Positions 3,042 to 62,380 of a stretch of 64,000 bases of DNA are shown in pieces (the first letter of the stretch is position 1; the number at the start of each line of letters is the position of its first letter). The notes beneath the pieces are model-generated. The model had not been told where the DNA came from, did not search any database, and was given only the letters and a program-made list of their open reading frames with translations. The stretch covers positions 3,841 through 67,840 of the forward strand of contig NZ_CAUPZT010000003.1 in the NCBI RefSeq assembly GCF_963515615.1. Reading direction: 5' to 3'. Position numbers and translations under genes: made by a program. The DNA is from an uncultured Granulicatella sp. (GTDB lineage Bacteria > Bacillota > Bacilli > Lactobacillales > Aerococcaceae).

Positions 3042-5687
3042 TTATGCCAATGTTTTTAAGGTTGCAATACGTTCTAGAACTGCTTGACGTTGATCAGCGT
3101 ATTCTTTTCCTTTTGCACGTTCTGCTTCTACGACAGCTTCTGGTGCTTTAGCAACGAATTTTTCATTTGATAATTTTTTTTCTACACGATTCACTTCATC
3201 TTGTAGTTTAGTTGCTTCTTTTTCTAAACGAGCAATTTCGTCATCAATATTAATTAATCCTGCTAATGGTAAGTAGATTTCAGCTCCACTAATGACACTT
3301 GTTACAGCGTGACTTGGCGCTTCAACTTCTAAACCATATTCAAATGATTCAGGATTACAGAAACGAGCAATATAGCTTTCATTTTCTGATAAAATAGCTT
3401 GAATATCCGCACTTGAAGTTTTTGCGATAATCGCAATTGGTTTCGATAATGGTGTATTCATTTCATTTCTGCTTGTACGAACGGAACGAATAAAGTCCAT
3501 TAAGAATTCCATTTTTTCTGCTGCAGCTTCATCCATTTGACTTTCTTGTACAACTGGATATGAAGCCACTACTAATGAATCTCCAACATGAGGAACTGAT
3601 TGCCAAATTTCTTCAGTTACGAATGGCATAATTGGATGTAATAAACGTAATGTTTGATCTAATACATATACTAAAATGCTACGAGTTGTTAATTTAGCAG
3701 CTTCATCATTTCCTGCTAATGTTTCTTTAGACATTTCAATATACCAATCACAGAAATCATCCCAAATGAAGCGATACAATAGACGACCAGCTTCACCAAA
3801 TTCAAATTTCTCGAATAATTCTGTTACTTTAGCAATCACTTGGTTTAAGCGAGTTAAAATCCATTTGTCTGCTAATGTTTTTTCACCAGTAATATCTAAT
3901 TGCACTACTGTTAAATCACCAATATTCATTAACGCATAACGGCTAGCATTCCAGATTTTATTGATAAAGTTCCATGCAGCATCCATTTTATCTGTAGAAT
4001 AACGAACGTCTTGTCCAGGTGCTGAACCATTTGCTAAGAACCAACGTAACGCATCTGCTCCGTATTGTTCGATGACTTCCATTGGGTCCACACCATTACC
4101 AAGAGATTTACTCATTTTACGACCTTGGCTATCACGAATTAATCCGTGGATTAGTACATTTTTAAATGGACGTTTGCCTGTAAATTCTAATCCTTGGAAC
4201 ATCATACGGCTTACCCAGAATGTTAAAATATCATAACCTGTTACAAGTGTACTTGTTGGATAGTAACGTTTATAGTCACTAGCTTCAACATCAGGCCAAC
4301 CCATTGTTGAAAATGGCCATAATGCAGATGAGAACCATGTATCTAATACATCCACATCTTGTATCCAGTTTTCAGCATCTGCTGGAGCTTCCATTCCAAC
4401 ATATACTTCACCAGTTTCATTATGATACCATGCTGGAATTTGATGTCCCCACCATAATTGACGAGAAATTACCCAGTCATGAATGTTTTCCATCCAACGT
4501 AAGTAAGCATCATTAAAACGTGGTGGGTAGAAATTAACTGTATTATCTTCTTCTGCACGTTGCGCTTGAATCGCTTGTTCTGCTAAAGGTCCCATTTTAA
4601 CAAACCATTGTTTTGATAAACGAGGTTCTACCACTACATCTGTACGTTCAGAATGTCCCACACTATGAACATGTTTTTCGATTTTTACAAGAAGTCCTGC
4701 TTCTTCTAAATCTTTCACGATTGCTTTACGAGCTGCAAAACGATCCATTCCTTCGTATTTTCCAGCTAATTCATTCATTGTAGCATCATCATTCATCACA
4801 TTTACACGTGGTAAATTGTGACGATTACCAACTTCAAAGTCATTTGGGTCATGGGCAGGTGTAATTTTTACAACCCCTGTTCCAAAATCTTGTTCAACAT
4901 ACTCATCAGCAATAATTGGAATTTCTTTTCCAACTAATGGCAAGATAACTGTTTTTCCAATCAATGCTTGATAACGTTCATCTTCAGGGTGAACTGCAAC
5001 TGCAGTATCTCCAAGTAGCGTTTCAGGACGAGTTGTTGCAACTTCTAATACTCCACTTCCGTCTGCTAATGGATAATTCATATGGTAGAAAGCACCTTCT
5101 ACATCTTTATGAATAACTTCGATATCTGATAATGAAGTTTTTGCTTTTGGATCCCAGTTAATAATGTATTCTCCACGGTAAATTAAGCCTTTTTCATATA
5201 ACGTTACGAATACTTTTTTAACAGCATCTGATAGTCCTTGGTCTAATGTGAAACGTTCACGGCGATAGTCCACTGAAATTCCCATTTTTGCCCATTGTTC
5301 ACGGATATGGCTTGCATATTCTTCTTTCCATTCCCATGTTTGTTCTAAGAATTTTTCACGTCCTAGGTCATAACGAGATAAGCCTTCTCCACGTAATTTT
5401 TCTTCTACTTTTGCTTGAGTCGCAATTCCTGCATGGTCCATCCCTGGTAACCATAATGTATCGTATCCTTGCATACGTTTTTGACGAATAATCATATCTT
5501 GTAATGTAACGTCCCACGCATGTCCTAAGTGTAATTTACCTGTTACATTTGGTGGTGGAATAACGATTGAATAAGGTTCTGCATTTGGATCTTCATTTGG
5601 ATGGAAGACTCCTGATTCAACCCACCATTGATATTTTCCCGCTTCAACTTCTTGTGGTTGAAACTTTGGTGACATTTCTTTTGCCAT
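3042..5687 (-). CDS. valS: Valine--tRNA ligase
   Basis: 881 aa; class I HIGH ([13 protein letters not shown]) and KMSKS motifs; C-terminal coiled coil. Confidence 0.95.
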
Positions 5688-9217: not shown

Positions 9218-9320
9218 AAAAATGACTTTTTATAGTAGTATTAGCGATAGAAACCACGAGGTGTGGTTTCTATCACAGGAAGCTGACGTCCTTTACTACT
9301 ATATCCAAAAAGTCAATTTT
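9218..9320 (+). repeat. Nested-hairpin intergenic repeat, copy 1 (medium form, one inner hairpin)
   Basis: AAAATGACTTTTTATAGTAGTA...GATAGAAACCAC/GTGGTTTCTATC...GCTGACGTCC...TACTACTATATCCAAAAAGTCAATTTT. Abuts the prfB stop codon. On the minus strand the stem is followed by TTTTTATTTTTT. Confidence 0.8.
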
Positions 9321-10433
9321 TATTCCGTCTCGCCGGATAGCGTCCATTTTAAATACGCATCCATAAATGGATCTAAATCTCCATCCATAACAGCACCAAT
9401 ATTCCCCGTTTCATGACCCGAACGTAAATCTTTTACTAAAGAATACGGATGGAATACATAATTTCGAATTTGAGAACCCCAAGCAATATCTTTTTGTTCG
9501 CCACGAATTTCAGCTAACTCAGCTGCTTTCTTCTCTTCTTCTAATTGATATAACTTCGTTTTTAACATTGCCATCGCTTGATCCTTATTTTTAAATTGCG
9601 AACGTTGCGCCTGACTTTGCGTTACAATTCCAGTTGGAATATGCGTAATACGAACAGCTGATGAAGTTTTATTAATATGTTGCCCCCCAGCACCACTCGC
9701 ACGATATACATCAATTTTCAAATCATCTGGATTAATTTCGATATCAATATCCCCTTCTAATTGAGGCATAATATCAATAGAACAAAATGAAGTGTGACGT
9801 TTTCCAGCAGCATCAAATGGAGAAATTCTTACTAAACGATGTACGCCTTTTTCACTCTTCAAATAACCATAGGCATTTAATCCTTCAATAGATAACGTCA
9901 CAGACTTAATACCAGCTTCTTCTCCATCTTGATAATCAACTGTTTCAATGCGGTATCCATGTTGTTCAGCCCATCTTGTATACATTCTTAACAGCATACT
10001 ACCCCAGTCTTGTGATTCTGTTCCACCAGCTCCTGGATGAATTTCTAAAATTGCACTACATTTATCATGAGGTCCACTTAGTAACATACTTAATTCATAT
10101 TTTTCTAATTCTTTTTCAACGCTATGAACACGTTCCACTAACTCCTCATGAATTTCTTCTTCGGGATCTTCTTTATACATTTCAAATAATAGTTCCACTT
10201 CTTCTACTTGTAGTTCTAATTGATGAAAAGTGTCATAGACTGCTTTTAATTCATTACTCTTTTGAATGACCATTTGTGCTTTTTCATTATCATCCCAAAA
10301 TCCAGGTTCAGACATTTGTTGCTCATAAGAAGCAATATCTTCTTCTAAATGATCTAAGTCAAAGAGACCCCCTATAACTTGTCATCTGAGTACTCATTTT
10401 TTCTAATGCATTTCTGATTTCACTAATTTCCAT
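9320..10433 (-). CDS. prfB: Peptide chain release factor 2, made via programmed +1 frameshift
   Basis: ORF0 from ATG 10433 gives MEISEIRNALEKMSTQMTSYRGSL then TGA (10359-10361). The +1 frame continues DLDHLEEDIASYEQQMSEPGFWDD... into the 331-aa ORF with the SPF and GGQ motifs. Confidence 0.9.
10359..10373 (-). promoter_or_regulatory. prfB +1 frameshift site AGGGGG-TCT-CTT-TGA-C
   Basis: Internal SD-like AGGGGG (10368-10373), slippery CTT (10362-10364) and in-frame TGA followed by C, matching the classical RF2 autoregulatory recoding signal. Confidence 0.9.
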
Positions 10434-19835: not shown

Positions 19836-19921
19836 AAAAGACTTTTCGCTATAGCATAACAGGAAAATCACTTTTGCAAAACTGCTTGCATCCTTTACTA
19901 TTATAGAAAAGTTACTTTTTT
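19836..19921 (+). repeat. Nested-hairpin repeat, copy 2 (short form)
   Basis: AAAAGACTTTTCGCTATAGCA..ACAGGAAAATCACTTTTGC..CTGCTTGCATCC..TACTATTATAGAAAAGTTACTTTT. Confidence 0.75.
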
Positions 19922-19951
19922 TCGTACTCTCATAAACACCTATCCAATAAG

Positions 19952-20034
19952 AAAAGACTTTTCGCTATAGCATGACAGGAAAATCGCTTTTGCGTGGTTG
20001 CTTGCGTCCTCTGCTATTTTAGAAAAGTCTTTTC
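19952..20034 (+). repeat. Nested-hairpin repeat, copy 3 (short form, tandem to copy 2)
   Basis: AAAAGACTTTTCGCTATAGCA..ACAGGAAAATCGCTTTTGCG..TTGCTTGCGTCCTCTGCTATTTTAGAAAAGTCTTTTC. Confidence 0.75.
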
Positions 20035-27056: not shown

Positions 27057-27199
27057 ATGACTTTTCATAGTAGCAGTAGTATTAGAAGTCGCTTCGACTT
27101 CTAATACTGGAAACTTTGAGACCCTAGGCTCAAAGTTTAGCAATGAGACTCGCTTTGCGAGGCTGCTTGCGTCCTTTCTGCTACTATAAATAAAGTCAT
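27057..27199 (+). repeat. Nested-hairpin repeat, copy 4 (long form, three inner hairpins)
   Basis: ATGACTTTTCATAGTAGCAG..[TATTAGAAGTCG/CGACTTCTAATA]..[AAACTTTGAG/CTCAAAGTTT]..[CTCGC/GCGAG]..GCTGCTTGCGTCC..CTGCTACTATAAATAAAGTCAT. Separates two ABC half-transporter genes. Confidence 0.85.
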
Positions 27200-28819
27200 T
27201 TACGCATTTATCTCCCTTATCATAATGCTTCCATCTTGTATTTCTAAACAATAATCAAATTGTTGCATAAATTCTTCATCATATTGGTGTGTACTATAAA
27301 CGATTAATTTATTTTCTAACTGTTTCACTACTTCTTCTACTTTCAAGCGATTCTGAACATCCAAGCCAGCAGTCGGTTCATCAAATAATAAAATTTCTCT
27401 ATCAAAGAATAATAACCTCGCCAAATCAATTCTTCTCTTTTCACCACCTGATGCAGTCGAAAGAATACTATTAAACTCCGTTGACTGATCCGCCCATTTT
27501 TCTAATCCAACTTGCTTACATAACGCTTGAAACTGAGAATCAGTAATTGAATTTTGTAAGCTAATATTCTCTTTTAATGATAATTGAAAGATTGAAGTTT
27601 CTTGCCCAATATAAGAAATTTGATGAGAAATTTTTTCTAATTCAGAACTATCCAATAATTTCCCATTTTCCAATTGAAATTTCAATGACTGATTTTCAAC
27701 AGCGATTGAACCAATCAATGATTTTAAAAAGGTTGATTTTCCACTACCACTTTCACCAATCAAAAGATACTTCTTCCCTTTTTCTAATTGAAGATTCAAC
27801 TGTTGAAATATTAGTTTTTCATCAAAATTTACCGAAAAATCTTCAAAAATAATTTTTTGAATATTAGATTCTTCTTTTACGACGTTAATTTTTCTTTGAT
27901 CAATAATTTCAAACACTTTATCTTTTACACTTTTAGCAGCGACTACTTCCGTATAACTCGCTCCAAACCCTTGAATAGGATATGCTACATATTGTGTTAA
28001 TTGTTTAATTGTAAAAAATACTGCTAAAGTAACCGAATAATTTAATACAAAATAGCCTCCTAATACCCAAGAGAATACATTTACAAACATTCTCAATCCA
28101 TAAGAAATTGCATAAACAAATTTATTAGTATGTGTTACGTATACCTTTGCTTCTACTAAATCACGACTTTTACTTCTTAAGCGTTTATTAAATAACGGAA
28201 AAACATCATATACTTTTAAAGTTGTAAAAGAATCGAATATTTCTGTTAATAACGATAAATATTTTTCATTAATTTGAGATAAATTTAATTTTGCATTTCC
28301 TAAAATTTTTCTTGAAAAATATGGCAACGCAAATGGTAACGAACTTAATCCAATCATTAAAATAGCAAACAAAGGACTAATGACTATGGCAGATACGAAT
28401 CCTAAAATAAATACCCATACATCATTGTACATACTTAACAATTCTTTAATATAATCACTTTCAATAGTTTCTAAATCTTTTGTGTACATATTTAAGTAGT
28501 AATCTCTACCTAATTTTTCAAACTCCACAATGGATTGGCTTTCAATTTATTCGAGTAAATCTTCTCGAATGTGATACATTAATTCCTGCGTTAGTCTTTC
28601 ATTTACAACATCTACTGCATAATCTAAATATGAATCAATCAATACATAAACAAAGGATAAAACTGCAATCCATATAAAATTTTCAAATTTTCCTTCTGTA
28701 ATAGTTTCCACTAATAAATTAATAATATAAGCCATAAAAACAACAGATACTGCCCCAAGCATACTAACGAAAGAAAAGGCAATAAATGGTTTCATACTTT
28801 TACGAATATAACGATACAT
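27200..28819 (-). pseudogene. ABC exporter half-transporter interrupted by one in-frame TAA (28547-28549)
   Basis: ORFs 28547-28819 (90 aa, N-terminal TM segment) and 27200-28528 (442 aa; Walker [29 protein letters not shown]) share one frame (...DLLE*IESQSIVEFEKLG...). The final stop TAA lies inside repeat copy 4. Confidence 0.6.
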
Positions 28820-29011: not shown

Positions 29012-29088
29012 AATGACTTTTCATGGTAGCAGTAGCAATGAAACCGAAGGTTTGCTGCCGCCCTTTGCTACTATAGATAAAGTTATTT
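29012..29088 (+). repeat. Nested-hairpin repeat, copy 5 (short form)
   Basis: AATGACTTTTCATGGTAGCAGTAGCAATGAAACCGAAGGTTTGCTGCCGCCCTTTGCTACTATAGATAAAGTTATTTACGC. Confidence 0.75.
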
Positions 29089-29092
29089 ACGC

Positions 29093-29137
29093 AAAAATGA
29101 AGTGACCCCAAAAAGTTAAACTTTTTGGGGCCACTTC
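29093..29137 (-). terminator. 19-bp near-perfect hairpin terminator after the 536-aa ABC gene (CCCCAAAAAGTT family)
   Basis: GAAGTGGCCCCAAAAAGTT-TA-AACTTTTTGGGGTCACTTC followed by ATTTTTG on the minus strand. Confidence 0.7.
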
Positions 29138-29225
29138 AGAAAACATGCTGATATGAAATACTCCACTATTTGTTCTACACATTAAGTCTCAGTGTAATAT
29201 TTCGTAATAAAAGAAAGTTATTCAG

Positions 29226-30836
29226 TTACAAAACATATTGTTTAGTTAATCTTTGAATCACATACTCTGACAGATGATGAGTTACCATTACTACAGTAAG
29301 CGTGTCATTATCGAATAACAATTTTTCTATTTCTAGTGCAGATTGATTATCTAGCGATGAAGTAATTTCATCTAATAACACGACTTTTTTATTTCTCAAC
29401 AAACCTCTTGCTAATATTATTTTTTGTTTCTGTCCGCCAGAAATATTTTTTGCTTGATAATCAATAATTGTTTCTAACCCTAGTTCCAAAGAATCAATCC
29501 AGTCGCTAAGACCAACCTGTTTTAAAATATTTTCTAATCTACCTTCCTCTATCGATTCATTTAAAATAATATTTTCACGTATCGTTGCATTAAATAAATG
29601 TGGATTTTGATCAATGTAGATTATAGAATTATGTAAACTAGTAATGTCTAAGTCTTTATAAGAAATATTATCCCAGTAGATATTACCTTTAGTTGGTTCT
29701 AGACGACGATTCATAATATTTAACAGTGTTGATTTCCCTTTTCCTGATTCAGCAGTAATCACTACCTTATCTCCCTTTTTAATTTCCATGTTCATATTTT
29801 CTAAAACAACACGTTCAGTATTAGGATAACTAAAATGAATATTTTGCAATCGGATACTATTTGTTAGCTCATTGACGACTTTCCCATCATTTCTTTCACA
29901 ATTACTTTTTAATTTCTTACTATATTTCTCAAACACAGGTTGAACGGTTTTCAGTTCCGCATAATTAGCATTAAACCCTGTTAGGCTCGAGAAAATTGTT
30001 GCAGCGAAAAACTGCACTCCACCTATAGCTCCTATAGGGACATACCCTTCTACATATAAATACCCTGTAAATACCAATAAGATAATTTGACTAAATAAAC
30101 TTAATCCATTTGTGGCAGATATCATTTTCCCAGAATCAACAGCGTATTGTACCTTTACTTTTTTTAATCTGTACGATCCAAATAAGATTTTACCCTTAAA
30201 ATAATCTCCTAAATTCATACTTGATAAATCATTAAATCCATGCAGTACATCTGTAAAAGTACTCGTCACCTCATCACTGACTTTGGTCATAATTTCCATA
30301 CTACTTGTCATTTTGGTGCTAAATTTTTTTGGAACTAACACCATTGCTATAAATAATAACACTATTACGACAATAATTGAATAATGAAAATAAACTATAG
30401 CCGATACACTCAAAGCAATCCCCACAGCCTGATTAATCATCATCTCTAAGTTGTTAAAACCGTGTTGATTAATCGTCATGATGTCATTCGTCAACCAAGA
30501 CAAATAAACACCCTGTTCATTTTCATTAAAAGAAAGGTAATCTGTTGTCACTAATTCTTGCGCAATATCCTCTCGTATTCTGCAATCCATACTTTGAACT
30601 GCATCTGTTAGTAATTTTCTCTCAAAAAATAGTTGAAACATCCATACCATGAAGATAACAAGCAATTGAACACTTAATAACTTTGCTGTTTCAATTTCCA
30701 ACTTGGCTAAAGCCGTCACTAAATTAGCTATACTAACTCCCCACAATACTAAACAAGCTTGCCCTACAATAATTGTCAATAACACATAACTATTCTTTTT
30801 CCATTCTCTTTTTATATATTTCATTAAACTTTTCAT
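29226..30836 (-). CDS. ABC exporter, fused permease/ATPase half-transporter
   Basis: 536 aa; TM domain then Walker A AESGKGKST, signature ISGGQKQK, Walker B VLLDEITSSLD. Confidence 0.8.
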   Translation of the reverse strand: MKSLMKYIKREWKKNSYVLLTIIVGQACLVLWGVSIANLVTALAKLEIETAKLLSVQLLVIFMVWMFQLFFERKLLTDAVQSMDCRIREDIAQELVTTDYLSFNENEQGVYLSWLTNDIMTINQHGFNNLEMMINQAVGIALSVSAIVYFHYSIIVVIVLLFIAMVLVPKKFSTKMTSSMEIMTKVSDEVTSTFTDVLHGFNDLSSMNLGDYFKGKILFGSYRLKKVKVQYAVDSGKMISATNGLSLFSQIILLVFTGYLYVEGYVPIGAIGGVQFFAATIFSSLTGFNANYAELKTVQPVFEKYSKKLKSNCERNDGKVVNELTNSIRLQNIHFSYPNTERVVLENMNMEIKKGDKVVITAESGKGKSTLLNIMNRRLEPTKGNIYWDNISYKDLDITSLHNSIIYIDQNPHLFNATIRENIILNESIEEGRLENILKQVGLSDWIDSLELGLETIIDYQAKNISGGQKQKIILARGLLRNKKVVLLDEITSSLDNQSALEIEKLLFDNDTLTVVMVTHHLSEYVIQRLTKQYVL

Positions 30837-30882
30837 ATTAATCTCCTAACTATATCCTAATAGAATATCTCCTTTGAATTGT

Positions 30883-31068
30883 TTATTCATGTGTAATGCT
30901 AACATAACCAATAACATACCCCTCTAGAATTCGAAAATCTTGGTTTGGTTCGATAAATAGGCGCTCATAATATCGATTCAATAATCTTAAGATATTATGA
31001 CTACACTCTAAACAACCCTCACGCCAGAGATAATATATAATCCCTGCTATGCCATGGCACAAACAAAC
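30883..31068 (-). pseudogene. Remnant of the C-terminus of a LanC/LanM-type lanthionine cyclase (61 codons, no start)
   Basis: Own translation: VCLCHGIAGIIYYLWREGCLECSHNILRLLNRYYERLFIEPNQDFRILEGYVIGYVSITHE*. CHGxAG is the Cys-His zinc-ligand motif and LEGxxG the terminal LanC repeat. Bounded upstream by TAA; frame offset by one nt from the adjacent 75-aa ORF. Confidence 0.5.
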
Positions 31069-31075
31069 TTAATGA

Positions 31076-31300
31076 TTATTTATAGGTAGAAAATCCATAA
31101 TTATCAACTTGGCAAGCGAATTGGTCATATAATGTTGCATTTCCTAATGATTCAACTTTATTATTTCCTAATATATTAATATTATTTAGTGCATCGTAAG
31201 TATCTATACTAGCAATAGCTAATAAACTTAAAATCTTTATATTTTTCGATAGTTCTTGTAATATGCTTTTTTTACTTTGTATATCATCTGCTTTTCTCAT
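31076..31300 (-). CDS. 74-75 aa ORF of unknown function, possibly an upstream out-of-frame piece of the decayed cyclase gene
   Basis: ORF-track entry; no clear RBS, no signal peptide, no recognised motif. Confidence 0.2.
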   Translation of the reverse strand: MRKADDIQSKKSILQELSKNIKILSLLAIASIDTYDALNNINILGNNKVESLGNATLYDQFACQVDNYGFSTYK

Positions 31301-31402
31301 CAATTAAATATATGTAAGTATTTCATTATAGCCATAATTGGATATTCTAGTTACCACCTTTTGTCAATATAACAATTCATAAAACCCTCCACATTTCATA
31401 AA

Positions 31403-31446
31403 CATAAAAAGCTGTAACATAGCTTCGGTAATCTATGTTACAGCTT
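31403..31446 (-). terminator. Strong rho-independent terminator after the 63-aa gene
   Basis: 14-bp perfect stem AAGCTGTAACATAG/CTATGTTACAGCTT followed by TTTTTAT on the minus strand. Confidence 0.8.
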
Positions 31447-31473
31447 AAATGTACTGTTAAAATAGTAACAAAA

Positions 31474-31665
31474 TTAAAACATCACAATACTTGGTTCTGA
31501 AGAAGATGGTGTAGATGAAGAAGTCCCTCCACCTGTATGCGCATTCATAACTTTTAATTTTTCTTGTTCTTTCATTACTTGTTCATTGTACCCAATTTCT
31601 TTTTTAAACAATCCTGATGTTGTTTCTTTTATTACTTGATTACCATTCCATTTTATATTAAACAT
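31474..31665 (-). CDS. 63-aa small protein with a Gly/Ser/Thr/Pro-rich C-terminal tail
   Basis: MFNIKWNGNQVIKETTSGLFKKEIGYNEQVMKEQEKLKVMNAHTGGGTSSSTPSSSEPSIVMF; GGGGAG RBS 7 nt upstream; own consensus promoter and terminator. Confidence 0.6.
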   Translation of the reverse strand: MFNIKWNGNQVIKETTSGLFKKEIGYNEQVMKEQEKLKVMNAHTGGGTSSSTPSSSEPSIVMF

Positions 31666-31691
31666 ATGCCATCTCCCCTTTCATAATCAAA

Positions 31692-31707
31692 TTAGTTAAT
31701 TAACTAA
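31692..31707. promoter_or_regulatory. Perfect 16-bp palindrome TTAGTTAATTAACTAA over the predicted transcription start (candidate operator)
   Basis: TTAGTTAA|TTAACTAA, starting 4 nt downstream of the -10 hexamer of the 63-aa gene promoter. Confidence 0.5.
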
Positions 31708-31711
31708 CTTG

Positions 31712-31740
31712 ATTGTAATTCTAAATCAACTATCTGTCAA
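31712..31740 (-). promoter_or_regulatory. Consensus sigma-A promoter TTGACA-17nt-TACAAT of the 63-aa gene
   Basis: Minus strand -35 TTGACA (31735-31740), 17-nt spacer, -10 TACAAT (31712-31717). Confidence 0.7.
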
Positions 31741-31801
31741 CAGAATCATTTACGCTTCACGTACTCCACATCAAATCGTTATTACCTTCCATCAAACAAG
31801 T

Positions 31802-31948
31802 AATGACTTTTCATAGTAGCAGTAGTAATAGAAGTCGCTCCGACTTCTATTACAGGAAACTTTGAGACCCTAGGCTCAAAGTTTAGCAATGAGACTCGCT
31901 TTTGCGAGGCTGCTTGCGTCCTCTCTGCTACTATAAGATAAAGTCATT
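31802..31948 (+). repeat. Nested-hairpin repeat, copy 6 (long form)
   Basis: Near-identical to copy 4 but hairpin 1 is TAATAGAAGTCG/CGACTTCTATTA (compensatory pair swap). Lies between the rex stop and the 63-aa gene promoter. Confidence 0.85.
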
Positions 31949-32003
31949 TACGACAAAAAAACATCTCATAAATGCTCTCCACATTTACAAGATGTTTCTA
32001 CAA

Positions 32004-32639
32004 TTAGTTATTATTGTTATTGTCTAAGAAATAAATCAAAGTTTGCAATTCATTTGTTAAGTCAACATTTTGAACACGAATATGATCCGGTGCAGTTAAA
32101 CGAAGCGGTGTAAAGTTTAAAATACCACGAACATCAGCTTCGATTAATAAATTAGCAGTTTCTTGAGCAACCTCTTGAGGAACTGTTAAAATCGCCACTT
32201 GAATTTGTTGTACACGAATTTGTTCAACCAAATCGTCCATAGAATAAACAGGTACTCCACTCACGATTTTACCTACCATACCTTCGTCTACTTCAAATGC
32301 AGCACTAATTCTCACATGATTACTTTGATGGAAATTATAGTTTAATAAAGCTTGACCTAAATTACCCACTCCAACTAAAGCAACATTTGTTAAACGATCA
32401 TGATTTAATTGTTGACTGAAGAAGTCTAATAAATACTCCACATCATAACCATAACCACGCTTTCCTAACGCTCCAAAATATGAGAAGTCACGACGAATTG
32501 TTGCACTATCAACTTTTACTGCTTCACTTAATTCTGTTGAAGAAATACGACGTTTCCCTGCATCATGTAAAAATCTTAAATAACGATGATAAATTGCCAA
32601 GCGCTTTGCTGTAGCTTTTGGAATTTCAACTTTTTTCAT
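32004..32639 (-). CDS. rex: Redox-sensing transcriptional repressor Rex
   Basis: [17 protein letters not shown] winged-helix N-terminus, then the Rossmann motif [12 protein letters not shown]. Confidence 0.9.
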
Positions 32640-34860: not shown

Positions 34861-34915
34861 AAAAGACTTTTCCTCGTAGCTTACGACATGTCTGCTACTG
34901 AAGAAAAGTCTTTTT
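34861..34915 (+). repeat. Nested-hairpin repeat, copy 7 (minimal form, closing stem only)
   Basis: AAAAGACTTTTCCTCGTAGC..TTACGACATGT..CTGCTACTGAAGAAAAGTCTTTTT. T-runs on both strands, between convergent genes. Confidence 0.65.
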
Positions 34916-34930
34916 GGTTAACATGAAATC

Positions 34931-35158
34931 TTAATATTCAAAACCCATTTCATTGGCGAATGATTCAAAATCAACAAATTCCATATCGCCCTCTTCATAT
35001 TTATGAATAGTATTTAATTCTTCTTTGGTAGGAATGACACTATCTTGGAATAAAGAAATAAGCGAAACCAAAGCATTTGCTTGTTCATCATCTAACTCAT
35101 CGACATTTAGATGGTTTAAAATCCTTTTTAGTTCTTCTTTCACCGTCATCACAGTCAT
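34931..35158 (-). CDS. Small acidic protein (72-75 aa), unknown function
   Basis: MTVMTVKEELKRILNHLNVDELDDEQANALVSL...EEGDMEFVDFESFANEMGFEY. Lies 62 nt downstream of an ABC exporter pair. Confidence 0.45.
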   Translation of the reverse strand: MTVMTVKEELKRILNHLNVDELDDEQANALVSLISLFQDSVIPTKEELNTIHKYEEGDMEFVDFESFANEMGFEY

Positions 35159-38817: not shown

Positions 38818-38863
38818 ACCCTACTTCCAAACGTCTCCCCATTACAACACGTCCCAAGTAAAA

Positions 38864-39002
38864 AATGACTTTTCACAGTAGCACGAGTACTAGAAGCCAA
38901 CTCGGCTTCTAGTACAGGGAAAATTGAGACCCAGGCTCAATTTTTAGCCAAGAGACCCGAAAGGGGCTTCTGGCGTCCTAGTGCTACCTCAGAAAAGTCA
39001 TT
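38864..39002 (+). repeat. Nested-hairpin repeat, copy 8 (long form, most diverged)
   Basis: All three inner hairpins are kept with different sequences (TACTAGAAGCC/GGCTTCTAGTA; AAAATTGAG/CTCAATTTT; CCC-GAAA-GGG). Its right arm contains the asd stop codon. Confidence 0.85.
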
Positions 39003-39993
39003 TTCTACGTAGTTCTTTCTCTTCAATTAACTCCGCAATTTGTACTGCATTACTTGCTGCACCTTTACGAATATTATCCCCCACACACCAAATATGGAAA
39101 CTATTTGGTTGAGAAATATCACGACGAATTCTTCCAACAAACACTTCATCATGACCAGTTGCCATTAAAGGTGTTGGATATTCATTATTAGCAGGATTAT
39201 CCACTACTACAACACCAGGAGCTTTCGATAAAATTTCACGAATTTCTTCTGGAGTAGTATCTTTTTCAAAAGTAACATTTATCTCTACTGAATGTGAATT
39301 CATAACAGGCACACGCACACAAGTTGCAGTAATTGCCACTGATTCATCTAACCCTAAAATTTTACGAGTTTCTTGAATCATTTTCATTTCTTCTTTTGTA
39401 TAACCATTTTCTAAGAAAACATCAATATGCGGTAATACATTATTATAAATTGGATGAGGATAATTTGTTGGCGCTAATCCTTTTTCTCCATTGACTAAAT
39501 CATTAATCCCTGCTTGTCCTGAACCAGATACTGCTTGATAAGTTGTGTAAGCGACTCTCTTCAAGCCAAACGCTTCATTTAGTGGTTTTAATGGCACTAC
39601 TGATTGGATTGTAGAACAGTTTGGATTCGCAATAATTTTTCTTTCTAATGTTGGTGCATTACACTCTGGAACTACTAAGTCAATCTCAGGATCCATTCTC
39701 CATGCACTTGAATTATCAATGACAATTACGCCATCTTTTTCTGCAATTGGAGCAAATTTTAATGAAGTTCCTCCACCAGCTGAGAAAATCGCATAATCAA
39801 TATCACGTTTAAAAGAATTTTCTGTTAATTCTTCAACAACATAATCTTTTCCTCTAAATTGTAATACTTTCCCTGCTGAACGTGCAGAAGCTAATAAGTA
39901 TAAATTTTCCACTGGAAGGTTACTTTCTGCTAATCTTTCAATCATTTTTGTACCTACAACACCTGTTGCACCTACAATTGCAATATTTACCAT
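38998..39993 (-). CDS. asd: Aspartate-semialdehyde dehydrogenase
   Basis: MVNIAIVGATGVVGTKM NAD(P) motif and active-site NPNCSTI. Confidence 0.9.
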   Translation of the reverse strand: MVNIAIVGATGVVGTKMIERLAESNLPVENLYLLASARSAGKVLQFRGKDYVVEELTENSFKRDIDYAIFSAGGGTSLKFAPIAEKDGVIVIDNSSAWRMDPEIDLVVPECNAPTLERKIIANPNCSTIQSVVPLKPLNEAFGLKRVAYTTYQAVSGSGQAGINDLVNGEKGLAPTNYPHPIYNNVLPHIDVFLENGYTKEEMKMIQETRKILGLDESVAITATCVRVPVMNSHSVEINVTFEKDTTPEEIREILSKAPGVVVVDNPANNEYPTPLMATGHDEVFVGRIRRDISQPNSFHIWCVGDNIRKGAASNAVQIAELIEEKELRRK

Positions 39994-58455: not shown

Positions 58456-59481
58456 ATGAAGCATGAAATAGATAACATTCATCAAGATATTTATAACAAT
58501 ATTAAACAATTAATGAATCAAGCAAGGAATAAGGTATCCAGAGAAGTCAATAATATTCTTGTTCAAACCTATTGGGAAATTGGACGAATTATCGTAGAAG
58601 ATGAACAGGAAAACTTAAATAGAGCTGAGTATGGGAAAAAATTAATAGCAGATTTATCAAAGAGACTTACAAAAGAATATGGCAAAGGATTTTCAAGGTC
58701 TAATTTACAAAATATGAGGAATTTTTATTTGTTGTATCCAATTTGCCAGACACTGTCTGGCAAATTAAGTTGGTCACATTATTGTGAATTACTGTCTGTC
58801 AGTGATGAAAAGAAACGAAGTTTTTACGAAAAAGAAACCATTCAAGCAAATTGGTCGGTAAGAGAGTTGAAACGGCAAATTAAAACCTCGCTTTTTGAAA
58901 GGTTACTACTCTCATCGGGAGAAGAGAATAAAGAAAAAGTATTAGACTTAGCTCTAAAAGGAAATGAAATTAATAAGGCAAGTGATCTTGTAAAAGATCC
59001 TTATGTATTTGAATTTTTAGGATTACCTGAAGAAAAGCTTATGATGGAAAGTGATTTAGAAAAATCTTTAATGACTCACATTGAAAAATTCTTACTTGAA
59101 CTAGGCAAAGGCTTTATGTATGTGGGAACACAACAAAGAATAACACTTGGAAACACTCATTATTATGTGGATATGGTATTTTACAATAAACTATTAAAAA
59201 GTTATGTTTTGATTGAATTAAAAACCGGAAAACTAATGCCAGAAGCTGTTGGACAACTCAATATGTATTTGAACTACTACAAAACAGAAGTAAATGATGA
59301 AACGGATCATGAACCAATTGGAATTATCCTTTGTACCGATAAGGATAGTATTCAAGCAGAATATGCTCTTGGAAATTTATCTAATCAAATATTTGCATCT
59401 AAATACACTTTGTATATTCCAGATAGAGAAGTACTTGAGGAACAAGTTGAGAGAGTGTTAAGGGATTATAACGGGAAATAA
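58456..59481 (+). CDS. YhcG/DUF1016-family PD-(D/E)XK nuclease
   Basis: N-terminal ..VNNILVQTYWEIGRIIVE.. and ..KGFSRSNLQNMRNFY.. are typical of DUF1016. C-terminal restriction-like core YYVDMVFYN...YVLIELKTGK (D..ExK) is intact. Confidence 0.75.
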   Translation: MKHEIDNIHQDIYNNIKQLMNQARNKVSREVNNILVQTYWEIGRIIVEDEQENLNRAEYGKKLIADLSKRLTKEYGKGFSRSNLQNMRNFYLLYPICQTLSGKLSWSHYCELLSVSDEKKRSFYEKETIQANWSVRELKRQIKTSLFERLLLSSGEENKEKVLDLALKGNEINKASDLVKDPYVFEFLGLPEEKLMMESDLEKSLMTHIEKFLLELGKGFMYVGTQQRITLGNTHYYVDMVFYNKLLKSYVLIELKTGKLMPEAVGQLNMYLNYYKTEVNDETDHEPIGIILCTDKDSIQAEYALGNLSNQIFASKYTLYIPDREVLEEQVERVLRDYNGK

Positions 59482-59715: not shown

Positions 59716-60369
59716 ATGGAAAAACGTACGAACCAAGCACAAACAATGACAAATGTCCTAGCACAGAAAGTTTTCAGTAATCCTGAAATAACGGCACAAT
59801 TTATGAGTGATATACTAGAACTACCCGTTCATGAAGTAAAATTACTGAATCCTTTTGAGAATCTGGATCATAATAAAGCAAGCATCACTGCCTTAGCACA
59901 ATTAGCCAGTAGATCCGAAATGATAATAGAAATTCAAATAGTGGAGGAAGTTAATATCAACGAATCCTATTATTTATATCTTTCAAACTATTTCACTAAA
60001 AATAAAGAGTTATTTGAAGCAAAAGAACTTAATCCAATGTACTTTGTCAATGAAGTACTACCATTTTATACCATTTACATCACACAAAAACGATGTTTCG
60101 ATGATGAAAGAATGTTCCATTCATTCACTTTATTAAGTGATGCTTCAAACGAATCACTAAAAGTAGATTTCAAAGGATTCGATGAACCACAAAATCTTGC
60201 TGAAATGAAATTTTTAGAATTGGATAAATATCATACAGAATATACACAAGATTACAGTAAAGTACGTTGGATTGAATTGTTCACTAATAACCCATTTACA
60301 CAAGCACCAGACCCTATACTCAAACAAGTAGAACAAATTCGAAAAACACTTGAAGACAGAAAAGAGTAA
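59716..60369 (+). CDS. Short Rpn/YhgA-like PD-(D/E)XK family protein (possibly degenerate)
   Basis: 217 aa; N-terminal ..NVLAQKVFSNPEITAQFMSDILELPV.. and ..EMIIEIQ.. resemble the PD-(D/E)XK transposase_31 family. The usual upstream Asp is not evident and the protein is shorter than the typical ~300 aa. Confidence 0.4.
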   Translation: MEKRTNQAQTMTNVLAQKVFSNPEITAQFMSDILELPVHEVKLLNPFENLDHNKASITALAQLASRSEMIIEIQIVEEVNINESYYLYLSNYFTKNKELFEAKELNPMYFVNEVLPFYTIYITQKRCFDDERMFHSFTLLSDASNESLKVDFKGFDEPQNLAEMKFLELDKYHTEYTQDYSKVRWIELFTNNPFTQAPDPILKQVEQIRKTLEDRKE

Positions 60370-60477: not shown

Positions 60478-60559
60478 AAAAAGACTTCGCATAGTAGCTC
60501 AAGGCATGAAACACCGAAGCTGGTTGCTGCCGTCCCTAGCTACTATATAGCAAAGTCTA
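60478..60559 (+). repeat. Nested-hairpin repeat, copy 9 (short form)
   Basis: AAAAGACTTCGCATAGTAGCT..GAAACACCGAAGCTGGTTGCTGCCGTCCCTAGCTACTATATAGCAAAGTCT; between convergent genes. Confidence 0.7.
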
Positions 60560-60571
60560 TTTCTAAATTTA

Positions 60572-62380
60572 TCAGTCTAAATCAAGCTGCCCCGTATACA
60601 ATTGATAGTACACACCTTGTTTTTCCATTAAACTTTCATGGTTCCCACGCTCAATAATCTCACCATGGTCCATAACCATAATCACATCCGCATTACGAAT
60701 CGTCGATAAACGATGGGCAATTACAAACGAAGTTCTACCTTCCATCAATTGGTCCATCCCTTTACTAATCAACGCTTCCGTATGACTATCAATCGAACTA
60801 GTCGCTTCATCCAAAATTAACACCTTCGGATTTGCTACTGCAGCCCTAGCAATCGCTAATAACTGTCTTTGCCCTTGAGAAAGACCTTCACCATCACCAG
60901 TAATCTCCGTTTGATACCCATGAGGCAAACGTTTAATGAACCCATGCGCATTCGCTAATTTCGCAGCTTTTACCACTTCATCATCTGTCGCATCTAAATT
61001 CCCATAACGAATATTATCTGCAATCGAACCCGTAAACAAATGCGTATCTTGTAATACAATCGAAATGGTTTTACGTAAATCATCTTTCTTAATTTCCGTA
61101 ATCGGAATTGTATCAAACGTAATTTCTCCATTATCAATTTCATAAAATCGATTAATTAAATTCGTAATCGTAGTTTTCCCAGCACCTGTTGCACCCACAA
61201 AAGCTACTTTCAATCCTGGTTCAGCCCAAACATTGATTTTTTTCAAAATTGGTACATCTGAAACATAACTAAAGTCCACTTCATTCAATTGAATATTCCC
61301 AACAACAGGGATTCTCTCTTCTCCTTTTACCCAATACCATTGTTTTGAATCTGTTTGATCTAAAGTTACAGTTCCTTCATCCACTTCAGATTCTTCTTTT
61401 AATATCGCAAAAATTCGTTCTGCCCCAGCCATTGCAGCTAATAAGACATTTGTTTGTTGTGACATTTGTGCTAATGGTTGTGCAAATGTTCTTGAATATT
61501 GTAAAAATGAAGCTAACGCCCCAACGTCCATTCCTTGAAATACGACTAAATATCCACCAACTGAAGCGGTTAAAGCATAATTAATATAACTAATATTGCC
61601 TAAAATAGGAAACATGATATTTGAATTAAATTGTGCTTGATTCGCAGCTTCTCTTAATTGAGAATTTAAAGTTTCAAATTCTTTTAAGACTAATGTTTCA
61701 TGATTGAATACTTTAACGACTTTTTGCCCTTCAATATGTTCTTCTACAAAGCCATTCACTTGCCCTAGAACTTTTTGTTGTTCAGCAAAGAATTTACCCG
61801 AACGACCTGCTACTACTCTAACAATCGCAAACATAATCAAGACCATAACAATCAACATTACTGTTAAAATTGGAGATAAAATAATCATCATCACAAAAGT
61901 TAGCACCAATTGTAATAAAGAGCTGACAATCATCAACATACTATTATTAAACGCTTGTTGGATATTTTCAAAATCATTTGTAAAACGAGACATTAAATCC
62001 CCATGTTTATTTGTATCAAAGAAACGAATTGGCAATGTTTGAATATGGTCGAATAAATCTTTTCTCATCGTTTCAATCGTTTGTTGACCAATCGTAATCA
62101 TAATTTTCCCAGAGAAATAATTCGCAATCGCCCCAATAATATAAATCAACCCAATGACTCCTAGCATTTTTGCTAGACCTACTACATCTTTTGTCGCAAT
62201 AAAATCATTAATTAATGGTCGAATAAAGTAAGTCCCTACAATTCCTGCAGCACTACCTAACACAACTAATAAAAGAACAGCGAAAAGACTCCACTTACTT
62301 TTCCATAAATAGCTCCATAAGTCAGCTAATGTTTGCTTTAAATTTTCAGGACGTTTTGATCCGATTTTTTTAACGCTCAT
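60572..62380 (-). CDS. ABC multidrug-type exporter, permease/ATPase subunit B of a heterodimer
   Basis: 602 aa; Walker A GATGAGKTT, signature LSQGQRQLL, Walker B LILDEATSSID. Confidence 0.85.
   Translation of the reverse strand: MSVKKIGSKRPENLKQTLADLWSYLWKSKWSLFAVLLLVVLGSAAGIVGTYFIRPLINDFIATKDVVGLAKMLGVIGLIYIIGAIANYFSGKIMITIGQQTIETMRKDLFDHIQTLPIRFFDTNKHGDLMSRFTNDFENIQQAFNNSMLMIVSSLLQLVLTFVMMIILSPILTVMLIVMVLIMFAIVRVVAGRSGKFFAEQQKVLGQVNGFVEEHIEGQKVVKVFNHETLVLKEFETLNSQLREAANQAQFNSNIMFPILGNISYINYALTASVGGYLVVFQGMDVGALASFLQYSRTFAQPLAQMSQQTNVLLAAMAGAERIFAILKEESEVDEGTVTLDQTDSKQWYWVKGEERIPVVGNIQLNEVDFSYVSDVPILKKINVWAEPGLKVAFVGATGAGKTTITNLINRFYEIDNGEITFDTIPITEIKKDDLRKTISIVLQDTHLFTGSIADNIRYGNLDATDDEVVKAAKLANAHGFIKRLPHGYQTEITGDGEGLSQGQRQLLAIARAAVANPKVLILDEATSSIDSHTEALISKGMDQLMEGRTSFVIAHRLSTIRNADVIMVMDHGEIIERGNHESLMEKQGVYYQLYTGQLDLD

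Follow-up and report, generated by a model that had tools for sequence, protein, structure and literature searches.

The nine copies of a structured repeat in the window, a 64,000-nt stretch of Granulicatella DNA analysed here at its full length, raise a question about why they are there. Their strict orientation, their contact with stop codons, their stops in all three frames and their invariant loops ask whether the repeat is kept for termination or stabilization of transcripts, and which enzyme moved it. Granulicatella is an endocarditis agent whose RNA biology is hardly studied, and the window is 93–97% identical to the corresponding loci of G. elegans-type genomes. If the density of the window were typical, one structured element would make up 1–2% of the Granulicatella genome and lie behind hundreds of genes with nothing in common, and its influence would extend to transcript 3′ ends, operon boundaries and the stability of mRNAs. 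We found nothing on Granulicatella repeats in the literature, and the sequence of the conserved hairpin is absent from the literature searched.

The repeat family and its four-way-junction fold

A reading made from the sequence alone had listed nine copies in a single orientation, and all nine are present in the window sequence. A covariance model trained on 22 non-redundant full-length copies from related genomes, run over the whole window without filters, returned exactly these nine at E<0.01 and zero extra. All nine lie on the minus strand when the model is built in transcript sense, with scores of 169, 159, 154, 86, 53, 39, 38, 34 and 34 bits, compared with 14–44 bits on the opposite strand. 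The 23-nt left arm occurs five times with up to three mismatches (≤3), against none expected from shuffles. The density is about one copy per 7 kb, and extrapolation of nine copies per 64 kb would give ~200–250 copies per genome. Density in this one genus is far above that in its relatives. The TIR pattern, among 185,579 species genomes, is found in Granulicatella only, single chance hits aside. Plasmid and phage collections gave zero matches to the repeat (blastn, distant mode). The viral contig matches obtained with a BOX primer and the conserved hairpin as queries are chance matches in unrelated high-GC DNA.

We describe the anatomy on the strand that is transcribed with the upstream gene, which is the minus strand of the window. 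The full element (~150 nt) folds in RNAalifold as a four-way junction, with an outer stem closing three hairpins. At the 5′ end is an A-rich lead-in with stop codons in all three frames, namely TAA/TAG, the TGA of ATGAC/TTGAC and the TAGTAG of TATAGTAG. The outer stem of ~20 bp follows; A-rich and T-rich flanks prolong it by about 10 bp, and its most conserved part reads GTAG…CTAC in Granulicatella and GTGG/GTGA…CCAC/TCAC in streptococcal copies. Inside it, a covarying 4-bp stem carries a small hairpin, with the conserved internal loops GCAGC and UCUCAU. Next comes a hairpin with an almost invariant loop region, GAGCCUAGGGUCUC, and then one of 13 bp that is perfectly paired yet hypervariable in sequence. 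The 3′ end consists of the closing arm, a U-rich tract and often a ACGGAUAUUUAUGAGAGUACGU-like tail of 25–45 nt; on the plus-strand left side, many copies have such a tail or spacer, of 25–46 nt. The right-hand core GCTGCTTGCGTCC, noticed earlier as a sequence motif, turns out to be paired. Its GC[NN] part is the covarying 4-bp stem, whose partner is the strand 5′ of hairpin 3, and the variants of this stem are GCCA/TGGC, GCAA/TTGC, GGCA/TGCC, GCTA/TAGC and GGAA/TTCC.

The repeat is modular, as had been proposed. Copies measure 55–147 nt in the window and 55–160 nt overall, have no ORF and are AT-rich (30–45% GC); all keep the outer stem, the reduced forms being without one to three of the inner hairpins, and module indels of 53–82 nt occur at orthologous sites. 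The small size, the non-coding nature and the complementary ~20-nt outer arms are traits of a MITE. Compared with dinucleotide shuffles, seven of the nine window copies fold with z scores of −4.3 to −10.2; the two others, decayed short copies at 19836 (z −1.1) and 29012 (z −1.4), have no significant structure.

The base changes on which the proposal of a conserved structure rested are present in the sequence: T-A / A-T / C-G in hairpin 1, AAACTTTGAG to AAAATTGAG in hairpin 2, CTCGC to CCC in hairpin 3, and GCAG/CTGC to GCAC/GTGC in the closing stem. In alignments fitted to the structure, in which many copies share a common ancestry, double changes occur at 31 of 51 pairs among 22 copies (RNAalifold) and both-side changes at 49 of 51 pairs among 149 distinct aligned copies; in the latter set, 94.9% of cells are paired, compared with 74.2% in shuffles, and the covariation score is 0.467, compared with 0.143 in shuffles and 0.04–0.065 for slid partners. 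When copies more than 85% alike are removed, 92% of the stem cells in the remaining 103 copies are Watson–Crick, and G-U/U-G combinations exceed A-C/C-A on the transcript-sense strand (146 versus 65). Compensatory change maintains the four-way-junction fold; structure is conserved rather than sequence in the stems. Outside the covarying stems, ~35 nucleotides that are unpaired or lie in loops hardly differ between Granulicatella and streptococcal copies.

Other readings of the fold were rejected. A hammerhead-like junction (GAAA…AUGAGA) does not fit by eye in the order of its elements, and Rfam gave zero ribozyme matches. A pseudoknot between the tail hexamer AUGAGA and the internal loop UCUCAU, although the hexamers are complementary, is without covariation support because the loop variants UUUCAU and UCUCUU are unmatched by tail variants. 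A tRNA or cloverleaf shares only the four-way shape, with no tRNA or kindred family at the copies at Rfam gathering scores, and a mini-ORF in the tail is unconserved.

Stop codons, orientation and transcript ends

All nine copies (9/9) are intergenic and downstream of a minus-strand gene, in agreement with the sequence-only reading. Pfam-based assignments give these flanking genes no common function (prfB, an opp-type ATPase, ABC exporters, rex and asd). The full-length copy at 31802..31948 (minus strand; CM 169.4 bits; MFE −66.4 kcal/mol, z −8.8), a predicted four-way junction, lies 51 nt past the stop of a rex-like gene (32004..32639) and immediately follows the terminator belonging to it. 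Its 46-nt tail or spacer (31756..31801, minus strand) carries the family-wide tail motif ACGTACTCC…. A second full-length copy at 27057..27199 (minus strand; CM 158.9 bits, z −10.2) is directly abutted by the TAA stop of an ABC-transporter ORF, 27200..28528, the sequence …GCG TAA running straight into ATGACTTT. The full-length copy at 38864..39002 (minus strand; CM 153.9 bits, z −8.1) belongs to a diverged subfamily, and the asd ORF (38998..39993) terminates at a TGA within its terminal ATGAC. Its 46-nt tail (38818..38863, minus strand; …AACGTCTCCCCAT…) is followed by a canonical terminator at 38781–38817; thus, this copy lies within the asd 3′ UTR.

The shorter copies show the same contacts. 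The medium copy at 9218..9320 (minus strand; CM 85.8 bits, z −8.9) comprises the outer stem, the variable hairpin and a core remnant, and is without hairpins 2 and 3, both of which are present in its orthologous copies of 151–160 nt (L010, L040, L003). The TAA stop of prfB sits at its plus-strand right edge, where the ORF end at 9320 coincides with the copy's final base, 4 nt ahead of the ATTGAC arm. Behind an acyl-carrier-protein gene stands a tandem pair: an outer stem with a degenerate core hairpin at 19952..20034 (minus strand; CM 37.9 bits, z −4.3) and then a short decayed copy at 19836..19921 (minus strand; CM 34.2 bits), whose transcript-sense end is GAAAAGTCTTTTTTGTTGTTT. The 30-nt spacer between them (19922..19951, minus strand) carries the tail motif CGTACTCTCAT. 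The copy at 29012..29088 (minus strand; CM 33.9 bits), an outer stem with core hairpin, directly follows the canonical terminator (29098–29138) of an ABC-transporter gene, 29226..30836. A copy of the same build at 60478..60559 (minus strand; CM 52.9 bits, z −4.8) lies between convergent genes, 7–13 nt past the stop of the ABC-transporter gene 60572..62380. The minimal copy at 34861..34915 (minus strand; CM 39.3 bits, z −8.2) consists of nothing but the outer stem, with an A-tract on one side and a T-tract on the other; it too lies between convergent genes and has the form of a bidirectional terminator.

These relations hold beyond the window. The gene on one fixed side reads into the repeat in 87 of 87 copies from the window and the genome loci, as expected from the earlier proposal that the adjacent gene transcribes the reverse complement. 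Among 56 distinct low-GC sites, 50 have the adjacent gene running into the repeat at the same end (50 to 6); relative to replication direction, inferred from GC skew, the ratio is 46 to 12. At L033/L072 both absolute orientations occur within 8 kb, each copy following its adjacent gene. The stop codon lies −22 to +17 nt from the repeat at 36 of 50 sites. The opposite strand is transcribed in streptococcal contigs and at five to six (5–6) low-GC sites.

The 10 nt past the stem contain 6.6 T on average in the sense direction, and a T-run of at least four (≥4) is found in 63% of copies, compared with 27% in the other sense. Behind the acyl-carrier-protein gene, the two tandem copies stand where the related locus L102 has a canonical intrinsic terminator. 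A consensus terminator scan did not call the repeats themselves as terminators, and canonical terminators flank three copies, those at 29012 and 31802 lying behind one and that at 38864 in front of one; thus, the repeat is not consistently the terminator. The stem is AT-rich and branched, unlike typical terminators, which argues against such a role, and the strong conservation of the hairpin loop and internal loops across genera exceeds what a terminator would need. We consider that the repeat probably serves as a transcript end or a stabilizer. If copies took over the 3′ end of their genes, this would account for the bias in orientation, for the surplus of G-U relative to A-C on the transcribed strand and for their conservation at orthologous sites.

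Streptococcal relatives and known repeats

The same architecture occurs as single copies in streptococcal contigs, where both orientations are found; metagenome contigs of this kind score 58–99 bits with the family model. Each contig retrieved has no copy beyond the one that seeded its retrieval, so copy number in streptococci appears low. We take the repeat to be native to oral Lactobacillales, with relatives in streptococci.

A match to an Rfam family had been named at the outset as something that would count against a new repeat. The full model is unmatched at the gathering score; screened against Rfam at gathering scores, the window yields just a T-box, away from the copies. The core, however, partly falls under this objection. 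Hairpins 2 and 3 with the short surrounding stem match part of RF02616 (SSRC8_2) at 30–44 bits (E 1e-5 to 4e-9), all matches lying below the gathering score of 72 bits. Window copies reach 30.6–33.9 bits over model positions 152–209 of 281, the best Granulicatella copy 43.7 bits and the best streptococcal metagenome contig 69.4 bits. Positions ~140–240 of RF02616 share this core: a short stem encloses the hairpin uuGAGACCCUAGGCUCaa and another hairpin that sits on a covarying stem ending …GCUGCCGU. The differences are that only 60–100 nt of the 281-nt model match, the remainder being absent from the Granulicatella repeat, that the modelled strand is the opposite of that co-transcribed in Granulicatella, and that the Rfam entry represents a single sRNA gene and not a repeat. 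SSRC8 is Streptococcus pyogenes small RNA candidate 8, a transcript that both Northern blot and circular RACE revealed; the conservation reported across many streptococci covers only the 60–100-nt part (Tesorero et al. 2013, PMC3675131, Table 4). SSRC8 contains a copy of the repeat, the core of which is thus already in Rfam as a piece of an sRNA, unrecognized there as a repeat. RF02616 and similar sRNA candidates should then be reread, since a published streptococcal 'sRNA' holds a copy of a dispersed element.

The likeness to BOX (Martin 1992) had been drawn in the sequence-only reading; it stands for build, as an architectural analogy only, and falls for sequence. BOX elements located via the BOXA1R/BOXB1/BOXC1 primer sequences in five mitis-group contigs (L105, L111, L155, L192, L195) were unmatched by the family model with filters off at E≤1, while the repeat's own copy in those contigs scored 88–90 bits, or 34.8 bits where the contig end cuts one. 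Nothing resembling boxA, boxB or boxC is found in the window sequence. We know of no orientation or stop-codon rule for BOX comparable to that of the Granulicatella repeat. BOX (boxA-boxB(n)-boxC; Croucher et al. 2011, PMC3049150) resembles the repeat in its pairing terminal modules and variable number of inner hairpins, its length below 200 bp, intergenic position, stable predicted RNA fold and low current mobility, and its origin in oral and nasopharyngeal Lactobacillales. BOX repeats one inner module (boxB), whereas the Granulicatella repeat has three different hairpins, each present or absent.

Other families share some of these traits. SPRITE, described in 2011 as biased to gene 3′ ends and a proposed terminator, likewise consists of an extended duplex with a U-rich tract behind it and A/T-tract ends, and the minimal copy at 34861 is its look-alike in the window. 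In build, SPRITE is a simple 18-bp duplex, in contrast to the branched interior and conserved loops of the repeat. The REP/BIME and REPIN sequences of proteobacteria, which are associated with RAYT transposases, are also high-copy extragenic palindromes at gene 3′ ends, are co-transcribed, are known stabilizers of upstream mRNA and are recognized by structure. REPs carry a GT(A/G)G head, a conserved GTAG-type motif. They are ~35 nt long and GC-rich (REPINs ~100 nt), without an inner junction, whereas the repeat reaches ~160 nt and is AT-rich with a three-hairpin interior. EFAR is a repeat family of Enterococcus faecalis, ~170 bp long with a multi-hairpin fold and near stop codons, and it may be a relative; a literature search on 'EFAR' gave only unrelated acronyms and the EfaR regulator. 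The bcr1 repeat has another host group and probably a sequence different from that of the Granulicatella repeat; it is co-transcribed with adjacent genes, and its predicted RNA structure is conserved. It is a non-autonomous Firmicute repeat of ~155 bp in the Bacillus cereus group, variably present between strains and flanked by short direct repeats, of 5 bp compared with ~10 nt here (Okstad 2004; Klevan 2007; cited in PMC3184786).

Arrays, recombination and competing explanations

Units occur in tandem arrays of one to three with a conserved spacer between them; at the locus of copy 31802, L048 has three tandem units with the spacer. New units sit exactly behind the arm of a resident copy. The one clean insertion polymorphism, a 182-nt unit, comes from a streptococcal contig (L122 versus L184/L178) and has a direct repeat of 10 nt at its flanks. 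The same geometry is seen at copy 31802, where the direct repeat TCATTTACGC (31746..31755) is 9/10 identical to TCATTTACGA at the other end of the unit (31944–31953); this pair may represent a target-site duplication or else what is left of a lost copy. Both direct repeats, AAAAGTATAA at L122 (10 nt) and TCATTTACG at 31802 (9 nt), overlap the outer arm and are identical to the end of the repeat's own arm, and no others were found; they may belong to the element itself or result from recombination rather than from duplication on insertion. An empty-site search at relaxed identity gave only three candidates, of which L102 was useful and L122 clean. Within Granulicatella, no clean pair of filled and empty sites turned up, and the polymorphism seen there consists of copy-number and module changes and one replacement between terminator and element. 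The indels at 31145 (154 nt), 29103 (94 nt) and 25287 (88 nt) are not members of the family. A survey of 1.2 Mb of related sequence revealed no autonomous partner and no transposase or IS whose ends match, and orphan terminal arms, considered as marks of a full-length IS, proved to be noise in AT-rich sequence. A RAYT/IS200-type gene, which the sequence-only reading had suggested looking for, is absent from the window (tblastn with an approximate IS200 TnpA query); with the same type of query, IS200-like ORFs appear in two of 148 loci (L191, L132), not beside repeats.

We favour, with modest confidence, a MITE- or REP-like structured repeat that was massively amplified in Granulicatella and retained at the 3′ ends of genes, where it would terminate or stabilize transcripts; the two earlier proposals that this joins, a REP/BOX-like MITE and a 3′-UTR module, are both still the best candidates and do not exclude each other. 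A trans-acting enzyme would once have dispersed the copies, which landed at or just after gene ends, often by resident copies or sequences resembling their own terminal arm. Those that assumed the 3′-end role of a gene would have persisted, the long outer stem and U-tract acting as an intrinsic terminator and/or a barrier to 3′-to-5′ exonucleases, and mobility at present would be low.

The invariance of ~35 loop nucleotides across genera, set against covarying stems, could instead reflect a host-functional RNA module that is not selfish: its core (the GAGCCUAGGGUCUC hairpin and the GCAGC/UCUCAU loop) would bind a protein or RNase or signal processing, and it would have been put at many mRNA ends and multiplied by duplication and recombination. 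We regard this as unlikely. The surplus of G-U on the transcribed strand, the fixation of copies at orthologous sites in genomes 93–97% identical, the tight tie to stop codons and the accumulation of a copy-containing transcript in S. pyogenes (PMC3675131) agree with it. It fits less well with the disparate functions of the adjacent genes, with the dispensability of modules in many copies, the conserved hairpin included, and the decay of two copies, with the two orientations in streptococci, and with the de novo 182-nt insertion and its flanking repeat; moreover, the much higher density in one genus is the pattern of an expanding repeat. Independent transcription as a family of small RNAs, as Rfam annotates SSRC8, is highly improbable, and of the options raised at the outset it is the weakest in Granulicatella. 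Stable predicted folds and the partial match to an sRNA family speak for it; against it, copies start at or inside the upstream stop codon, leaving no room for a promoter, and a promoter scan at the copies found neither enrichment nor a conserved promoter. The Rfam strand, moreover, opposes the co-transcribed one, and the match is limited to 60–100 nt of 281.

Two further explanations concern the manner of movement, and we hold each to be distinctly doubtful. In one, a REP/REPIN-like element would work as ssDNA: a Y1 transposase of RAYT/IS200 type, present in single copy, or some other recombinase specific for structure would recognize its hairpin, and insertion at sites resembling its own terminal arm would build the tandem arrays. 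Arms that conserve structure rather than sequence, direct repeats at L122 and 31802 that equal the end of the arm, new units placed exactly behind a resident arm and a strand asymmetry of G-T mismatches that would also suit a folded DNA strand are consistent with this, and the GTAG…CTAC part of the stem recalls the REP head as a lead only. Yet the window has no Y1 transposase and the two IS200-like loci, found with an approximate query, lie away from repeats; orientation tracks the adjacent gene slightly better than replication (50:6 versus 46:12); and the repeat is four to five times the size of a REP, AT-rich and branched in its interior, unlike REP/REPIN. In the other, the conserved three-way core would go beyond a hairpin barrier and serve as the recognition module of a system for mobility or recombination, as yet undescribed, in oral Firmicutes; a unit of ~180 nt (tail plus four-way junction) would insert wherever the sequence equals that of its own terminal arm. 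Such targeting would place units behind resident copies and at terminator positions after stops; intrinsic terminators would be replaced genome-wide, and units transferred among Streptococcus, Granulicatella and other low-GC oral bacteria.

The repeat amplified and kept at gene ends, as we favour it, is also a substrate of rearrangement. Orthologous sites are occupied across genomes of 93–97% identity, and L067 and L029 are without the 2.7-kb, gene-containing segment between copies 29012 and 31802, the junction lying within the shared arm. Comparison of these loci shows that copies recombine with each other and are thus recombination substrates, and the length polymorphism that they generate is useful in strain typing.

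Census, fold and covariation

Nine copies of a structured repeat had been described from the sequence alone, and the sequences at 9218, 19836, 19952, 27057, 29012, 31802, 34861, 38864 and 60478 (copies are named by their start in the window) match that description; every detail we checked is correct. The 23-nt left arm, with ≤3 mismatches, occurs five times in the window and never in 100 shuffles. We trained a family covariance model, R1, on 22 non-redundant full-length copies drawn from related genomes as well as the window. An unfiltered search of the entire window with R1 returned exactly these nine copies (169, 159, 154, 86, 53, 39, 38, 34 and 34 bits), all on the minus strand, and no further copy at E<0.01. 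The same loci score 14–44 bits on the other strand. Seven of the nine have folding z values of −4.3 to −10.2 relative to dinucleotide shuffles; the short copies 19836 (z −1.1) and 29012 (z −1.4) do not fold significantly better than such shuffles and look decayed.

In transcript sense, i.e. on the strand co-transcribed with the upstream gene and opposite (reverse complement) to the one first described, the consensus is …AAUAnAAAUUGACUUUUUnnUAUAGUAGCAaUAGGACGCCAGCAGC[CUCGC…GCGAG]UCUCAUGGCUAAA[nUUUGAGCCUAnGGUCUCAAAn]UUUCCUGU[AAUAGAAGCCG…GGCUUCUAUUAC]UnnUGCUACUAUAAAAAGUCAUUUUUAUUUU. RNAalifold folds it into a four-way junction, in which an outer stem of ~20 bp with an asymmetric bulge encloses three hairpins. 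The outer stem extends ~10 bp more into A-rich and U-rich flanks (AAUAGAAAU / AUUUCUAUU). The right-hand core described earlier exists, and part of it is a stem, in which GC[NN]A is paired to U[NN]GC in five complementary versions (GCCA/UGGC, GCAA/UUGC, GGCA/UGCC, GCUA/UAGC and GGAA/UUCC). The folding energy is about equal on the two strands (−66.7 and −67.4 kcal/mol). Many copies carry a ACGGAUAUUUAUGAGAGUACGU-like tail 3′ of the closing arm, and this sequence doubles as the spacer of tandem arrays. The tail motif AUGAGA(G) (e.g. in the tail at window 38818–38863 and the spacers of the comparison loci L010, L072 and L041) and the conserved internal loop UCUCAU are complementary to each other; a tail–loop pseudoknot is not supported, because loop variants occur without matching tail variants.

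In a model-based alignment of 150 matches, 149 of them distinct, standard pairs fill 94.9% of stem cells versus 74.2% after partner shuffling, 49 of the 51 pairs show changes on both sides, and the covariation score is 0.467 versus 0.143 for shuffles and 0.04–0.065 for partners slid by 1–3 columns; although the alignment was made to fit the structure and the copies share ancestry, the effect is still far outside both controls. The earlier proposal of a conserved structure rather than a conserved sequence is strongly confirmed. In a reduced set of 103 copies, from which opposite-strand duplicates and copies >85% alike were dropped, Watson–Crick pairs make up 92% of stem cells, and G-U/U-G outnumber A-C/C-A by 146 to 65 on the transcript-sense strand. 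As G-U on this strand is A-C on the other, pairing is protected on the strand transcribed with the upstream gene, be it in the RNA or, in principle, in single-stranded DNA.

Position at gene ends and relation to terminators

A position 3′ of genes in a single orientation, as the sequence-only reading had it, holds well beyond the window: in the window and 27 Granulicatella genome loci, all 87 copies with a callable neighbour have the fixed-side gene reading into the element. When orthologues were collapsed and Granulicatella-like metagenome contigs added, 50 distinct sites were gene-co-oriented versus 6, and at 36 of these 50 the gene's stop codon ends between −22 and +17 nt relative to the element. 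The leading end of the element carries stops in all three frames. The TAA of prfB lies at the edge of copy 9218, 4 nt ahead of the ATTGAC arm, the TAA of the ABC-transporter gene 27200..28528 abuts ATGAC of copy 27057, and the asd stop is the TGA inside ATGAC of copy 38864. This near-absolute orientation and stop-codon contact in Granulicatella is a notable feature. Relative to the replication direction, taken from GC skew, the count is 46 to 12, which is about what gene co-orientation with replication leads one to expect; the gene rule is still obeyed in 6 of the 12 minority cases, and in L033/L072 both absolute orientations occur within 8 kb, each copy following its adjacent gene. The upstream genes (prfB, an opp-type ATPase, ABC exporters, rex, asd and the acyl-carrier-protein gene) are functionally unrelated, which rules out a gene-specific cis-regulator.

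Several genes and leaders of the window have features of their own. prfB (ORF 9320..10315) has a classical programmed +1 frameshift site at ~10355–10375 (−), AGGGGGTCTCTTTGAC, composed of an SD-like AGGGGG and then CUU UGA C, because of which the RF-2 ORF apparently lacks its N-terminus. The ABC-transporter ORF 27200..28528 (−) matches its membrane-domain profile from position 101 only and may, together with the 90-aa ORF 28547..28819 (−) just upstream, be a split or frameshifted gene. A full-length T-box leader (129 bits) at 5748–5959 (−) lies upstream of the 881-aa ORF 3042..5687, and T-box leaders also adjoin element copies in L041 and L024. Two plus-strand genes, 58456..59481 and 59716..60369, follow the two copies of an AT-rich 66-nt direct repeat (58310–58375 and 59593–59658; 85% identity, ending …CGTATCTATAAGTRAAGAGACAATA), perhaps a promoter or operator region that has been duplicated.

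Downstream of the closing arm, in transcript sense, comes a T-rich tract with 6.6 T per 10 nt, and a run of ≥4 T occurs in 63% of copies versus 27% in the other sense. Downstream of the acyl-carrier-protein gene, L102 has a textbook terminator, AAAAAAACGAGCTTAGGCTCGTTTTT, and its window counterpart consists of the two short copies 19836 and 19952 within the same flanks and the same A-tract…T-tract frame; that copies replace a canonical terminator at this one locus is notable. Canonical terminators directly precede copies 29012 and 31802. Copy 38864 with its tail comes after the asd stop codon and before a canonical terminator, hence inside a 3′ UTR, and the minimal copy 34861 is a 55-nt bidirectional-terminator-like hairpin between convergent genes. 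A simple terminator scan did not call the elements as terminators. A terminator or stabiliser role is suggested by where the copies lie, by their flanks, by the replacement case and by the strand asymmetry.

Some segments beside copies also vary between genomes. A 298-nt segment (34916–35214) directly beside copy 34861 is present in L048 and absent from L005, L006, L057 and L067; it contains a putative small minus-strand ORF of roughly 75 aa, judged by eye. A 94-nt segment (29103–29198) with a strong canonical terminator at 29098–29138 is also found in L004, L007 and L059 and is precisely missing from L026; it lies outside the repeat family. The ~1 kb between an ABC-transporter gene and copy 31802 (30836–31800) lacks a long ORF and may be a decaying gene; L007 and L004 have an extra 154 nt at window position 31145.

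Modules, arrays and mobility

The family is modular, as first described, with one to three inner hairpins absent from short copies. Orthologous copies differ between genomes by precise module indels of 53–82 nt, for example window copy 27057 compared with L026, L028 and L013. The number of units at the 31802 locus ranges from one (window) through two (L006 and L057) to three (L048), with a 40–46-nt spacer between tandem units. L067 and L029 lack the 2.7 kb that separate copy 29012 from copy 31802 (window 29021–31802) and hold the ABC-transporter gene 29226..30836; the junction lies inside the arm shared by the two copies, which indicates deletion via recombination between them.

One clean filled/empty pair was found. 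In L122, a 182-nt unit, composed of a 51-nt extension and a complete element, lies between a stop codon and a clearly different resident copy, and it is absent from the otherwise 95–98% identical L184 and L178. A 10-nt direct repeat, AAAAGTATAA, borders the insert on both sides and occurs once in the empty site; its right-hand copy coincides with the distal portion of the element's closing arm. The repeat may have arisen as a target-site duplication of about 10 bp. Alternatively, integration of the unit may take place at sites with the sequence of the element's own terminal arm, which would also explain new units exactly behind resident copies. Window copy 31802 has an L122-like geometry, TCATTTACG(C) – 46-nt spacer – element ending …AAAGTCATTTACG(A). 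Within Granulicatella, the compared loci contain no clean empty site, which argues that present-day mobility is low, and no autonomous partner was seen in 1.2 Mb of related loci. An approximate query sequence picked out IS200-like Y1 transposase ORFs, both split over two frames, in L191 (6022–6455) and L132 (2858–3290); they lie several kb from copies and have no evident link to them. Plasmid and phage collections gave no match, and an origin as plasmid or phage DNA was rejected. As the most likely mechanism we favour, on balance, past amplification by a trans-acting enzyme, after which copies serving as transcript 3′ ends, as terminator and/or exonuclease barrier, would have been retained.

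Relatives and class of the element

Across 185,579 species, each represented by one genome, the degenerate left arm matched Granulicatella alone (G. elegans ATCC 700633 and many oral metagenome-assembled genomes), scattered single chance matches aside. The window (33% G+C) is 93–97% identical to the matching Granulicatella loci. A metagenome scan with the 18-nt conserved hairpin yielded at least 120 loci of two kinds. The first are low-GC contigs with Granulicatella-type copies and several more subfamilies with other outer arms; the second are contigs of 40–45% G+C with one copy apiece, the same four-way architecture and a related but different outer stem (…CUUUCCGCUGUGAG…/…CUCACCUAAGGAAAG). 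Some of these higher-GC contigs contain genuine BOX elements and are therefore from mitis-group streptococci. Streptococcal copies score 58–99 bits under R1 and occur in both orientations relative to genes. The low-GC loci hold 271 matches in 831 kb, whereas 392 kb of higher-GC loci hold essentially just the seeding copy of each locus.

No Rfam family is found at the copies at curated thresholds. With permissive thresholds, the element core, i.e. hairpins 2 and 3 with the short stem around them, resembles RF02616 SSRC8_2 at positions of about 140–240 with 30–44 bits, short of the gathering score of 72. SSRC8 was detected as an RNA of Streptococcus pyogenes on Northern blots and by circular RACE, and the authors' table shows conservation across many streptococci for a 60–100-nt piece alone (PMC3675131). 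This piece is the same part that the element core matches. The Streptococcus relatives are already represented, unknowingly, in Rfam as part of an sRNA. The likeness to BOX that had been suggested is not a sequence relationship: in five contigs, R1 with filters off misses every BOX and matches the family's copy in each. The element joins the known class of small structured intergenic repeats, which includes MITE, REP, BOX, SPRITE and bcr1, and is itself new; its conserved four-way junction with invariant loops and its tail that is also the array spacer are notable.

The same core with quite different outer arms occurs in subfamilies in metagenome contigs of 28–36% G+C (L082/L088/L108, L080/L158/L160, L096/L162/L171, L092/L172 and L078/L110/L177), which may represent other oral low-GC genera. 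In the streptococcal-type contig L113, a copy (1775–1932) lies ~80 nt upstream of an M-box (magnesium) riboswitch (2014–2167) on the same strand.
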